Positions 27,887-32,000 of a stretch of 32,000 nucleotides of DNA are shown here, in pieces. Every line of letters begins with the position of its first letter. Position 1 is the first letter of the stretch. This DNA comes from Candidatus Harpocratesius repetitus (GTDB lineage: Archaea > Asgardarchaeota > Lokiarchaeia > Sigyniarchaeales > Promethearchaeaceae): assembly GCA_021498095.1 (NCBI GenBank), contig JAIZWK010000001.1, positions 420,001 to 452,000 on the forward strand, written 5' to 3'. Made by a program: the position numbers and the translations under genes. A model generated the notes under the pieces. It was not told where the DNA came from. It saw only the letters and a program-made list of their open reading frames with translations, and did no database searches.

Positions 27887-29236
27887 ATGGAGTATATTGG
27901 GCTCATCATTCTGTTATTAGCGCTTTTTATTGGAATAATAATTGTTTTCAGCAAAGAAAATTGGGATTATGTTGCAATTTCTTTACTTTTTGCAACAATA
28001 GCAGTCTTTACTACAATTATTACAATCACTGATCTTGGTACTAATATTTTGGGTGAATTTGGTCGAGAAAAATCGTCACAAGAAATAATTTTTTGGAGAT
28101 TTGTTCATACAATTGAATTTGAGCCAATTATTTTTTTAATTTCTATGCAGATAATCGTTTTAATGGTTGAAAAGCAGAAGATTTTCGAATGGATCGCTTT
28201 ACGTGTTTTACGCGCCACAAAAGGAAATCATCGAAAATTTTTTTATCTAATTAGCGCAATCAGTGCATTAACTGCATCGCTAATCGACGATATTACAGTA
28301 GCGATAATTTTCATTCCATTAGTTGTTCGAGCATGTCGAATTTTACGAATCAATGCAGCACCTTATCTATTTGCGATAAGTTTTACTATTAATATTGGTA
28401 GTCTTTATACACCCTTCTCTTCCTCTGAAAATATCTTAATTTCAGCAGCATTTGGTCTTGATTTTCTTTGGTTTTTAAAATCATTTTCCCTTTATGTATT
28501 CCCAATGCTTCTTTTTACACTGGCAATTTTGGATTGGTTTTTACTTCGAAAAATCGCACCTCCAGCAGAAGAACGAAAGAAAATACTCTTAGAAATCATG
28601 GATCCCAGCTTAGTTGTAGTAGATCGAAAGCATTTTATTTTAAATAGCATTTATTTTATAGCAATACTATTAGGATTCTTATTCTACCCAAATCCTTGGG
28701 TTGTGGCTGTTATCGGTGCTCTTGCTATGAGCTTATTAAATAGGCTCCAATTTACAGAGAATGCAAAACAAATTGATTGGAAAATCATATTTTTCTTTAT
28801 TGCCCTTTTTTTACTCATAGGTTGTATGAAAATGGCAGGTTTATTTGAAATTATTGGTAATTGGGCAAAATTATTTATACCTAATAATGAATTATTTGCA
28901 GCGTTTACGATCTTGATTATGATTGCAGTATTATCCGGATTTTTAGCGCAAGTTCCTACTGCTCTGGTTTTTATTACTCTATTGCAGAATATTTATGGAA
29001 CAAATTCTGGTGATGTTCCGAATTTAATCATGATGGCATTTTTATTTGGAATTAATTTGGGCTCAAATTTTCTTCCTCAAGGTGCAGCTTGTGATTTAAT
29101 GGCACTGAATCTTGCAGAGAAAAATGATGTCCGAGAATTTAATTACAAAAATCTTCTTTATCGAGGTTCAATGATTACCGTGCTGCATATTATTATGGGA
29201 TCGTTTTATCTTTCACTATATTGGCTGTTTCAATAA
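27887..29236 (+). CDS. ArsB/NhaD/SLC13-like (IT superfamily) permease, paralog 1
   Basis: More than 10 TM segments; hairpin motifs IDDIT, NIGSLYTPFSSSENILI and NLGSNFLPQGAACDL. Confidence 0.85.
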   Translation: MEYIGLIILLLALFIGIIIVFSKENWDYVAISLLFATIAVFTTIITITDLGTNILGEFGREKSSQEIIFWRFVHTIEFEPIIFLISMQIIVLMVEKQKIFEWIALRVLRATKGNHRKFFYLISAISALTASLIDDITVAIIFIPLVVRACRILRINAAPYLFAISFTINIGSLYTPFSSSENILISAAFGLDFLWFLKSFSLYVFPMLLFTLAILDWFLLRKIAPPAEERKKILLEIMDPSLVVVDRKHFILNSIYFIAILLGFLFYPNPWVVAVIGALAMSLLNRLQFTENAKQIDWKIIFFFIALFLLIGCMKMAGLFEIIGNWAKLFIPNNELFAAFTILIMIAVLSGFLAQVPTALVFITLLQNIYGTNSGDVPNLIMMAFLFGINLGSNFLPQGAACDLMALNLAEKNDVREFNYKNLLYRGSMITVLHIIMGSFYLSLYWLFQ

Positions 29237-29279: not shown

Positions 29280-30569
29280 TTAATACACAACAAAATAATA
29301 TGCACTTATATAGAGAATGCACATCAAAATGTGGATTAAGGCAAATTTTCCACCTGTTCGTAGCAAGTTCTTATACGTAAATCCTTCGACTTTATGCTTA
29401 AGTGCAATATTCAATGTCATAACATCACAAGCAGCCCCTTGTGGTAATAAATTTCCCCCCAAATTGATACCCAAGATAAATGCAATAATTACAATCGCAG
29501 GTGGATTGAATGCGAACATTTCATTTAGAAGAGTAATTCCAATAATTGCTGTGGGAGAATTTGCTAAAAATCCAGATAATACACTAGTCACAATTAATAC
29601 ACCAATCGAAAGTAGCCATAAATTCCCACCTGCAACAGATCTTAAACTGTCTAAAATTAATGTAAAAGTTCCATTATCAATCATGTTTCCAATAATCAAA
29701 AATAACGAAATAAAAAAGAAAATGACCTTCCAATCTATCTTTGTCACATTATCAGTGAATTGATCGCGGTTTAATAAAGACATTATGATTGCTCCGAACA
29801 ATGCGACTAAATAGGCATAATCGGAAAGAATAACAAATCCTATAATTACAGTAGAGAAATAAATTGAATTCAGTATAAATTGCTTTCGGTTAATTATTAC
29901 CAATTCTGGGTTCATAATTTCTAAAAGAATGCGTTTTTGTTTTTCAGCTGGAGGTGCGATTTTTTTTAAAAGTAAAAAATCTAATAATATTAATGTTCCA
30001 ATTAATGCAGTAATTACGAAGATTCCAGTATTAACAAAAAACCATTGAACTCCTAATCCAAAACTGGAACTAATCAGAATATTTTCCGATGAAGAGAAAG
30101 GAGTAAAAATAGAGCCAATATTTATTGTTATTGTAATCCCGTAAAGGTATGGAGAGGGATTTATTTTTAAAATTCGACAGGCTCTAATAGTCAGGGGGAT
30201 AAAGATAATCGAAACAGTTACATCTGCAATAATTGAAGCAGTAAAAGTTCCAATAATACAAATAAGGTAGAAGAAAAGTCTGTGATTCCCTTTTGTCAAA
30301 TGTAGAGTTTTTACAGCGATCCATTGAAATATTTTATGTCGTTCTGCAATTAAAACGATTACTTGCATAGAAAGTATAAAAATCAGCGGACTCCACTCAA
30401 TAGAATCGATTATATTAACATCCTCAAATCTAAAGAAAGTAATCAAACTTGAAATGGCGGCACCTAATAGAGCAAAGGCTACATAGTCTGCATTCTCTTT
30501 GCTAAAAATAATCATTATTAAGACAAATATAACAAATGTAACAATAATTGCAAACCAATCATAAGCCAT
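29280..30569 (-). CDS. ArsB/NhaD/SLC13-like (IT superfamily) permease, paralog 2
   Basis: IADVT, NIGSIFTPFSSSENILI and NLGGNLLPQGAACDV; convergent with paralog 1. Confidence 0.85.
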   Translation of the reverse strand: MAYDWFAIIVTFVIFVLIMIIFSKENADYVAFALLGAAISSLITFFRFEDVNIIDSIEWSPLIFILSMQVIVLIAERHKIFQWIAVKTLHLTKGNHRLFFYLICIIGTFTASIIADVTVSIIFIPLTIRACRILKINPSPYLYGITITINIGSIFTPFSSSENILISSSFGLGVQWFFVNTGIFVITALIGTLILLDFLLLKKIAPPAEKQKRILLEIMNPELVIINRKQFILNSIYFSTVIIGFVILSDYAYLVALFGAIIMSLLNRDQFTDNVTKIDWKVIFFFISLFLIIGNMIDNGTFTLILDSLRSVAGGNLWLLSIGVLIVTSVLSGFLANSPTAIIGITLLNEMFAFNPPAIVIIAFILGINLGGNLLPQGAACDVMTLNIALKHKVEGFTYKNLLRTGGKFALIHILMCILYISAYYFVVY

Positions 30570-31110
30570 CTATAAGTGGTCTCCCCTTTTTTTTTCTCGA
30601 TGTTTCTCTAATTTAGTTAGTACGGAATATTACATTTTGAAATTTAATTATTTTTTGATTTCATAGGCGAATAAAGATTTTTTTTATAAAATTTTATAAT
30701 AATATTCTTGCAAATAGAAATTTATTCAAATTCCATTGAATTTTCGGATTTACAGCCATATTAATCATACCTTTTTACATAAATTATCATATATCGAGGA
30801 ATTTTACAATTGAATTATAAATTAGAAAAATATTTCGAGAAGAACATCTTTAAAAAGCGAAAATCTTTTTATATGAATTCGACATAATTATGATTGTATA
30901 TATTTGCGAAGGAAATCGAAGTATGACTATATTCTAGGAGAAATACAGATAACAATCAAAATTTGGGGGATTATATATACTCTTTCCATGAGTAGTCAGT
31001 TAAATCGTGGTATAACTTCGTTTTAGGATGCTTTTCTGAATGTCAATTCATTTTAGAGAAGAAGAGCAAATCTATAATCTTTTTTGAAAGAAATACAGGA
31101 GGATAAAAAA

Positions 31111-31371
31111 ATTAGGATTGTCACTTGTAATGTTCCAATAACGTATTTAACCGCAATTGATAAATTGATCACCTCCGGCAATCATCAAGGACTATATCCT
31201 TCTCGTTCTGAATTGATAAGAATAGCTGTGCGAGAGTTCTTGTTAAAGGAATTAGAAGCAGCTAAGGAGTTTGAAAAGTTAAAATTTCAATCAAGAAATA
31301 AAGATGAGATAATAACTGAATCAAAAGAGATTAACCAACCAGCTATATTAAAAAAAATAAAAACACCATAA
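31111..31371 (+). CDS. Ribbon-helix-helix (CopG/Arc/MetJ) regulator, paralog 1; probable ATT start
   Basis: RIVTCNVP..YL.AIDKL....G.YPSRSELIR.AVREFL. The track uses TTG 31084, but AGGAGG (31097-31102) sits 8 nt before ATT 31111. Confidence 0.85.
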   Translation: MRIVTCNVPITYLTAIDKLITSGNHQGLYPSRSELIRIAVREFLLKELEAAKEFEKLKFQSRNKDEIITESKEINQPAILKKIKTP

Positions 31372-31419
31372 TATTTAATACAATAGCCAGTCTTTGCTGA
31401 AACGATTTAAATATTTACT

Positions 31420-31441
31420 TTTAAAGCTAGATAGCTTTAAA
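31420..31441. promoter_or_regulatory. Perfect palindrome TTTAAAGCTA-GA-TAGCTTTAAA between the two RHH genes (operator or terminator hairpin)
   Basis: 10-bp arms with a 2-nt centre, read directly; function is inferred. Confidence 0.4.
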
Positions 31442-31766
31442 TAGTTGACGCTTTTTCCAAAATTGATAAATTATTCTTTCTTCTGACATTTATTATCTAC
31501 TTAATACTAGATAATTTTCTATTAAAACAAAAGGATTATATAGAAGTGCAACATAATTAACTATAGTTATTAATTCGATAATCTCGGAAAGATAACAATC
31601 ACCCTTTTACAGGATAGTGTGTTTATCATACTAGGGGAGAGTAGGATACATCAAATAAGTGAAATCATCAATATATTACCTTAACTTAAAACGTGGGTCT
31701 TGCATTTTAACACACAATTCTGTAGATTGAAGTAATGGTATTTCAACATAATAGGAGGAATAACTA

Positions 31767-32000
31767 ATTCGCATTATTACCGTTAATTTACCTGTATCAT
31801 ATCTTAAGGCTATAGATTCACTCACTGGCCAAGAAGGATTGTATCCTTCACGTTCAGAGTTAATTCGTGTAGCAGTAAGAGATTTTTTAATTAGAGAACT
31901 TGAAACTGCAAAATCGTTTCAAAAGTATCAACAAACCCAAGTACCAAATAAGATCACTCATAAACCACTCGATGAAAATATGTTTGTTCAAGTTCCCGTT
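31767..32000 (+). CDS. Ribbon-helix-helix regulator, paralog 2 (not in the ORF track; ATT start; runs off the window end)
   Basis: Manual translation IRIITVNLPVSYLKAIDSLTGQEGLYPSRSELIRVAVRDFLIRELETAKSF... In-frame TAA at 31761-31763; AGGAGG at 31753-31758, 8 nt before ATT. Confidence 0.85.
   Translation, partial: MRIITVNLPVSYLKAIDSLTGQEGLYPSRSELIRVAVRDFLIRELETAKSFQKYQQTQVPNKITHKPLDENMFVQVPV

Follow-up and report, generated by a model that had tools for sequence, protein, structure and literature searches.

Two tandem genes that encode predicted ribbon-helix-helix (RHH) regulators, here called paralogs 1 and 2, lie at the 3′ end of the 32,000-nucleotide (nt) stretch of archaeal DNA analysed in this work (the window), and both very probably start with ATT. 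Comparison with related genomes points to two intact, selected genes that are, with good probability, translated from AUU behind a Shine-Dalgarno (SD) sequence as part of a lineage-wide habit. The genome is a single contig of 4.36 Mb (31% GC), in which the window spans bases 420001-452000. The host is a Loki-type Asgard archaeon from a Prometheoarchaeaceae-like family that comprises Harpocratesius, Prometheoarchaeum and Lokiarchaeum-type genomes. The RHH pair is 72-91% identical to database proteins labelled Candidatus Harpocratesius sp., Ca. Lokiarchaeum ossiferum or Promethearchaeia; judged from these names, the host probably belongs to the genus Harpocratesius. Among its relatives in the same family are two with closed genomes (4.3 and 6.0 Mb). 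Hereafter, ATH denotes ATT, ATC or ATA (AUH in RNA), and the canonical start codons are ATG, GTG and TTG.

The two genes, both on the + strand, have the same start anatomy. In paralog 1 (31111-31371; 86 codons including the stop), the SD AGGAGG at 31097-31102 is followed by an 8-nt spacer and by ATT at 31111-31113, reading ATT AGG ATT GTC ACT. In paralog 2 (31767-32000, extending 60 nt beyond the window; 97 codons including the stop), AGGAGG at 31753-31758 is likewise followed by an 8-nt spacer and by ATT at 31767-31769, reading ATT CGC ATT ATT ACC. Two 16S rRNA 3′ ends were found in the genome, both ending ...GGATCACCTCCT, and each of the two SDs is a perfect 6-nt complement of the CCUCCU of the 16S 3′ end. 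The 8-nt spacing lies inside the genomic mode, as GGAGG occurs 7-10 nt before the ATG of long open reading frames (ORFs) in this genome. Upstream of paralog 1, a TAA stands in frame at a distance of 12 codons. Upstream of paralog 2, an in-frame TAA (31761-31763, + strand) lies two codons 5′ of the ATT, and the earliest canonical start codon in the gene is the TTG at 31839-31841 (+ strand), its codon 25. A preliminary description of this DNA had reported the shared SD, spacing and homologous ATT, together with the upstream TAA of paralog 2 and its lack of a canonical start before the β-strand; each of these features was recovered. The bare motif is not found above chance: genome-wide, ATT stands at +8 in 27 of 1021 AGGAGG sites, as compared with ~50 expected from composition. 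The significance of the two ATT codons rests on homology.

Homologous genes share this start position. The genome encodes five further RHH paralogs, in which the codon corresponding exactly to the ATT is ATG and the N-terminus has the form M-[KR]-[IL]-[IV]-T. Ten genomes carry the tandem pair, and their 20 start codons are ATT (15), ATC (1), ATA (1) and TTG (3), with no ATG. Paralog 1 has ATH in all ten, its third base varying among T, C and A but never being G, and TTG occupies the paralog 2 start in three. ATH at the start codon of both paralogs spans four genera. A single ortholog, present in 20 further genomes of the order, starts with ATG in 15, TTG in four and ATT in one, and three genomes of the family carry four additional copies, which start with ATG (3) or TTG (1). 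Thus, the alignment of homologous loci, which had been proposed as a check, revealed that ATT is kept within the pair-bearing clade and swaps with TTG and ATG in relatives.

In many orthologs, a stop lies in frame 2-12 codons upstream of the start with no canonical codon in between, and the next canonical codon lies 25-80 codons downstream. Paralog 1 of one genome (G012), which has ATA at the start position, contains no ATG, GTG or TTG anywhere in its ORF. Prometheoarchaeum-type genomes possess a GTG two codons upstream, just 1 nt after the SD; in one genome (G013), this GTG is replaced by GTT and the ATT is retained. The G-rich SD, kept in all orthologs, is conserved together with its spacing across orthologs, and the surrounding leader diverges. 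Nonsynonymous divergence (dN) ranges from 0.07 to 0.30, and synonymous divergence (dS) has already reached saturation within the genus. Across 41 homologs, residues 3-9 show little or no variation. Saturated dS with low dN is the signature of intact genes, and rules out that the ATT stems from sequencing error or decay. The proposal that non-canonical initiation is conserved in these genes is therefore upheld by the retention of ATH in both paralogs and by the upstream stops that bar canonical starts.

The public gene calls for these proteins vary in their N-termini. For the ortholog in one relative (G002), the NCBI call on the metagenome-assembled genome begins at the ATT itself. Other ortholog calls are over-extended (145 amino acids, aa) or truncated (63 and 81 aa). 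Calls in Prometheoarchaeum-type genomes begin at the GTG 1 nt after the SD, and starts at a nearby GTG yield MIIRIITV... and MWTDLRIITV.... With the queries used, database searches returned eight protein matches for paralog 1 as compared with 399 for paralog 2; the small number for paralog 1 fits a scenario in which callers miss orthologs that have no canonical start. Overall, the short, over-extended and truncated calls of both paralogs bear out the earlier prediction that gene callers miss or mis-start such genes.

Scanning the genome for ORFs led by an SD and ATT or ATA, as the preliminary description had suggested, uncovered an excess of ATH at the SD spacings typical of ATG. The scan looked for an SD followed by a codon opening a coding-like ORF of at least 70 codons with a stop close upstream; it also demanded that no canonical start occur between that stop and the codon, nor within the next 12 codons. 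The candidates comprised ATT (14), ATA (11), ATC (4) and CTG (4), as compared with ~4 for each of the equally or more common control codons. At aligned SD spacings of 7-10, the window of the ATG peak, there were 29 ATH candidates versus ~8 expected, with ~1.9 per spacing elsewhere. In the same scan, no spacing peak was found for five AT-rich control codons or for the remaining 54 codons. The same spacing window held 165 ATG and 37 GTG/TTG starts. Judged from these sequence counts, ATH would start roughly a tenth of strongly SD-led genes.

The scan candidates include the genes for RNA polymerase subunit A′ (rpoA1; ATC), TFE (ATT), a DRG-family GTPase (ATT), isopentenyl phosphate kinase, an E1-like enzyme (CTG), two MazF proteins, two PIN proteins and a TrmB-like protein. 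Besides rpoA1, TFE and DRG, about 20 further SD-led genes with ATH starts are present in this genome. In rpoA1 (genome position 1566379, + strand; loci L043-L049), ATC stands 7 nt after AAGGTG. Within the same genera, seven genomes have ATC or ATT at this codon (ATT in Prometheoarchaeum-type genomes), with a stop two codons upstream in two of them; farther relatives have the ATG of M-S-Y... at the aligned position. The TFE and DRG genes (genome positions 926345 and 2770762, respectively, + strand; loci L066-L109) have ATT behind SDs. The TFE start is ATT in nine genomes; that of DRG is ATT or ATC in six and ATG or TTG in others. In all three genes, the genus distribution of ATH is the same as that of the RHH pair, which makes a lineage-wide tolerance of AUH the simplest account. 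As a separate observation, two MazF/PemK-like toxin paralogs (genome positions 1349291 and 3652085, both + strand) form another duplicated SD-ATT module, each with an apparent ATT start 6 nt after GGTGA and a stop three codons upstream.

We lean towards the view that these starts reflect a property of the lineage, in which relaxed start selection would allow AUU, AUA and AUC, and some CUG, to serve as regular starts at about that tenth of strongly SD-led genes, housekeeping genes included. Under this reading, AUH starts would be stable over divergence that saturates synonymous sites, and the RHH genes would be among the cleanest cases, with a duplicated SD-8 nt-AUU module and conserved leaders of ~200 nt. 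Mechanistically, AGGAGG would pair with the CCUCCU of the 16S 3′ end and thereby position the AUU, 8 nt further 3′, in the P site. The ordinary initiator tRNA (CAU) would then read AUU with a third-position mismatch, such that the protein would begin Met-Arg-Ile-[Val/Ile]-Thr. The DNA-reading β-strand would then form the very N-terminus, just as it does in the paralogs that start with ATG. The habit may stem from start-codon discrimination that lets AUH pass, together with the AT mutation pressure acting on a genome with 31% GC.

The initiator tRNA of this genome appears ordinary. A single initiator-type anticodon arm, GGGCTCATAACCC, was found, and its anticodon is CAU; ATH decoding is therefore presumably by third-position mismatch. 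A special initiator tRNA for ATH was considered and rejected, as the genome yielded this one initiator-type arm only, with a normal CAU. ARAGORN calls the gene containing this arm tRNA-Pyl (CTA, intron; genome ~751326-751433, − strand). It reports 36 tRNAs in the genome in total, and this low count, together with the Pyl label, indicates that the tRNA set is incompletely resolved, intron-rich genes especially.

Several points weigh against ATT initiation of the RHH genes as part of a wider habit. The evidence for the ATT starts is comparative and statistical throughout. For each common codon, the scan yields ~4 false candidates as background, and its reversed-motif control was not clean, as TGGAG overlaps real SDs; the spacing profile served as the control instead. 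The likely start of aIF1 in this genome is TTG, and an ATH start for this factor was accordingly rejected. In paralog 2, ATT also occurs at codons 3 and 4, and the public call on this contig (P0001; 94 aa, MTVNLP...) begins at the fourth codon. In paralog 1, the in-frame TTG at 31084-31086 (+ strand) would add nine codons; it is the start of the public call (P0121, 95 aa), and one 91%-identical relative retains the extension.

Of the competing explanations, the one that survives best is that AUU acts as a gene-specific regulatory device: a weak or factor-sensitive start would tune the amount of both regulators, as in bacterial infC. This is the reading of the preliminary description, in which ATT limits or regulates the dosage of these regulators. 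In its favour, paralog 1 has ATH and never ATG in all ten pair-bearing genomes. The leaders of both genes are also long and conserved and include a conserved hairpin or palindrome, which suggests extra control, and low-copy regulators or toxins account for several of the other ATH candidates, namely the two MazF, the two PIN and the TrmB-like proteins. However, rpoA1, TFE and DRG share the ATH pattern, so ATH is not reserved for low-abundance regulators. Moreover, paralog 2 itself has TTG in three genomes, and the extra copies use ATG or TTG. We therefore consider a gene-specific device unlikely. Of the earlier interpretation, conserved non-canonical initiation and the mis-started calls stand; the idea that the ATT serves to limit the dosage of these two regulators in particular is not supported, as ATH likewise starts rpoA1, TFE, DRG and some 20 more genes.

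Canonical initiation, with paralog 1 starting at TTG 31084 to give the 95-aa protein and paralog 2 starting at TTG 31839 or not being made, is much less probable still. The upstream TTG is in frame and shared with the 91%-identical relative, but lies 5′ of the SD, has no SD of its own, and opens an extension that other species of the genus and family either lack or have broken by stop codons. More specifically, G001 has a stop two codons before the ATT, G002 has one six codons before it, and G011 has no canonical codon. Even in the 91%-identical relative, the extension differs by 2 changes in 9 codons as compared with 6 in 86 for the rest of the gene. A start at codon 25 of paralog 2 is untenable because the β-strand and helix 1, with the invariant residues I3, T5, N7, L19 and G21, would be lost; in addition, one ortholog has no canonical start at all.

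The possibility that paralog 2 begins at a later ATT, at codon 3 or 4, is slight. It would agree with the 94-aa protein already called on this contig, but these codons are spaced 14 or 17 nt from AGGAGG, as compared with the genome mode of 7-10 nt, and the ATG or TTG of orthologs and paralogs aligns with codon 1 rather than codon 3 or 4. Finally, the chance that the ATT codons are sequencing errors or that the genes are decayed, either of which the preliminary description had named as a possible refutation, is negligible in view of the ATH that independently assembled genomes of nine other species have at this codon, the strong purifying selection at saturated dS, the intact ORFs, and the conserved synteny with a HerA-like ATPase gene. 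We thus retain the reading in which both RHH genes start at AUU behind their SDs.

To place the two proteins, we compared them with characterized families. According to Pfam, paralog 2 matches RHH_1 with 29.8 bits (cut-off 20.5) and RHH_8 with 28.7 bits (cut-off 25.4); the paralog 1 scores of 17.8 and 22.3 bits, respectively, are below these cut-offs. The two paralogs share 64% identity over the RHH core. In the AlphaFold2 (AF2) model of paralog 2 (mean pLDDT 76), residues 1-9 are extended, residues 10-19 and 29-57 form helices, and the C-terminus forms a β-hairpin. In Foldseek searches against the PDB, the best alignments were with the RHH domains of ParD and NikR (~50 residues, target TM 0.6-0.8, rmsd 1.5-2.5), with weak E-values, and a PDB sequence search returned NikR RHH domains only (E at least 0.04). 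Based on these profiles and the model, both proteins are assigned to the RHH (CopG/Arc/MetJ) superfamily, with a predicted N-terminal β-strand followed by two helices. The family is near-universal in the order, occurring in 39 of 41 genomes.

More specific assignments were considered and rejected. The best NCBIfam matches of the two proteins were to CdrS (26.1 and 24.1 bits; cut-off 100) and aCcr1 (12.4 and 20.5 bits; cut-off 60). These scores are far below the cut-offs, and the genes are not linked to division genes, the downstream gene being that of a HerA/DUF87 ATPase. A type II antitoxin of the ParD/CopG kind was rejected on the basis of a ParD_antitoxin score of 13.8 bits (cut-off 21) and the lack of an adjacent toxin ORF. 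PADLOC gave no match for either RHH protein, and a role in a defence system was likewise rejected. The proteins, at 86 and 97 aa, are also shorter than NikR, which has a C-terminal nickel-binding ACT-like domain and a length of ~135-150 aa; NikR profiles match the RHH part only, with 13-21 bits (cut-offs 83-119). By sequence, both proteins are thus classed as RHH regulators of unassigned targets.

Each gene is preceded, at about 230-250 nt, by a block resembling a transcription factor B recognition element (BRE) and TATA box. The block of paralog 1 (AAAATCTTTTTATATG...ACATAATTA; 30860-30890, + strand), ~240 nt upstream of the gene, forms a direct repeat with that of paralog 2 (AAAAGGATTATATAG; 31529-31559, + strand), in which GAAAG-N2-TTAWATA is kept in all ten pair-bearing genomes. 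A 12-mer, AGATAACAATCA, in the leader of paralog 1 (30947-30958, + strand) is identical to 31590-31601 in the leader of paralog 2; the two copies have similar offsets, 164 and 177 nt, from their ATT codons. The blocks are putative promoters, with transcription predicted to start near 30895 for paralog 1 and near 31565 for paralog 2. The conservation of the paralog 2 block in all ten genomes suggests that the genes have separate promoters and leaders of ~200 nt. Such leaders are unusually long, and the gene duplication appears to have copied the promoter-like block and the leader 12-mer as well.

A two-part inverted repeat or hairpin, GTTATT-AA-TTCGA-TAATC-TCGGA-AA-GATAAC (31566-31596, + strand), lies where the leader of paralog 2 is predicted to begin. 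A hairpin with genus-specific arms is found at the equivalent place in all ten orthologous leaders (L008-L019), with folding energies of −5.3 to −9.3 kcal/mol as compared with shuffle means of −1.5 to −4.3, for a segment selected after the palindromes had been seen. RNAalifold found no consensus structure in MAFFT alignments of either the whole leader or the hairpin segment, probably because the arms are out of register in these alignments. An Rfam search of 30400-32000 gave no match. As a lead, the element at 31566-31596 may be either an operator over the transcription start or a 5′-terminal RNA hairpin.

Short reading frames occur in some of these leaders. The Prometheoarchaeum-type genomes (L011-L014) carry an SD-like GAGGGGG ~110 nt 5′ of the start of paralog 2. 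With a spacing of 8 nt from it, ATT or ATA opens a 9-codon frame, which ends CCT-stop in 4/4 genomes, all of them close relatives. At this site, G008 has an 8-codon upstream ORF (uORF) that begins with ATG, and the present genome has only ATC-AAA-TAA. The short frame of L011-L014 may be a regulatory uORF. At paralog 2 in the window, a 10-codon uORF starting with ATG ends in a TAA that overlaps the ATT (TAATT). Termination-reinitiation coupling was considered here and rejected because this uORF is not conserved in G002 or G001.

Directly 3′ of the RHH pair, and on the same strand, lies a gene for a HerA/DUF87-type ATPase of 600 aa with a C-terminal coiled-coil-like region (genome 452236-454038, + strand; L110:236-2035). 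Six genomes from four genera share the gene order RHH-RHH-ATPase. The ATPase matches the PADLOC HerA and mad8 profiles, and no partner nuclease was seen adjoining it. Upstream of the pair are two convergent, paralogous membrane permease genes at 27887-29236 (+ strand, 449 aa) and 29280-30569 (− strand, 429 aa), the second of which also adjoins the pair in G002 and in Prometheoarchaeum-type genomes.

The occurrence of ATH starts in dozens of genes of the lineage, including that of an RNA polymerase subunit, implies that gene finders mis-start them. If AUH starts are routine in Lokiarchaeia, public Asgard protein sets would hold truncated, over-extended or missing proteins, as the calls of both RHH genes already illustrate. 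Such errors bear on predicted structures, on completeness estimates and on the phylogenies built from eukaryotic signature proteins. Archaea would then also differ in how faithfully aIF1/aIF2 check the start codon. The RHH pair is among the most conserved small regulators of the order, and its correct N-terminus, being the DNA-reading strand, is needed for functional work.

In Escherichia coli, infC and pcnB are AUU-initiated genes behind an SD. The RHH genes resemble them in having a near-cognate AUU, AUA or AUC at a normal distance from a strong SD, conserved in relatives and presumably read by an ordinary initiator tRNA. They differ in belonging to an archaeon with eukaryote-like aIF1 and aIF2, in which dozens of genes, including rpoA1, appear to share the feature. 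By contrast with infC, no autoregulatory loop through an initiation factor is evident here: the RHH products are predicted to bind DNA, and the aIF1 start is apparently TTG.

Within the Asgard archaea, our search of the accessible literature found no systematic description of ATH starts; it found only a remark on the tubulin AtubA, whose database protein is too short and for which an upstream "rare ATT start codon" lies at a plausible distance from a ribosome-binding site (Sci Adv 2026, PMC13394414). That remark concerns a single gene in another Asgard family and includes no comparative or genome-wide analysis, whereas the ATT starts described here were traced across genera and belong to a genome-wide pattern.

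Among characterized regulators, CdrS of Halobacteria and aCcr1 of Sulfolobales are small archaeal cell-cycle RHH proteins with the β-strand at the extreme N-terminus (PMC7439475, PMC8406309, PMC9976878). The Loki proteins are likewise small RHH proteins of a family that is highly conserved and near-universal in its order. Unlike CdrS and aCcr1, they possess a C-terminal extension, which in paralog 2 is a predicted β-hairpin ending ...EYKTYRLIKK, and their neighbour encodes a HerA/DUF87-type ATPase rather than being ftsZ2 or cdvA.

In eukaryotes, near-cognate non-AUG initiation is policed by eIF1 and eIF5 (PMC5666671, PMC4705826). The starts described here are similar in being one base off AUG and in occurring alongside homologous initiation factors (aIF1/eIF1). 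They differ in that SD pairing, rather than scanning and Kozak context, would position the start, and in that AUH is favoured over CUG.

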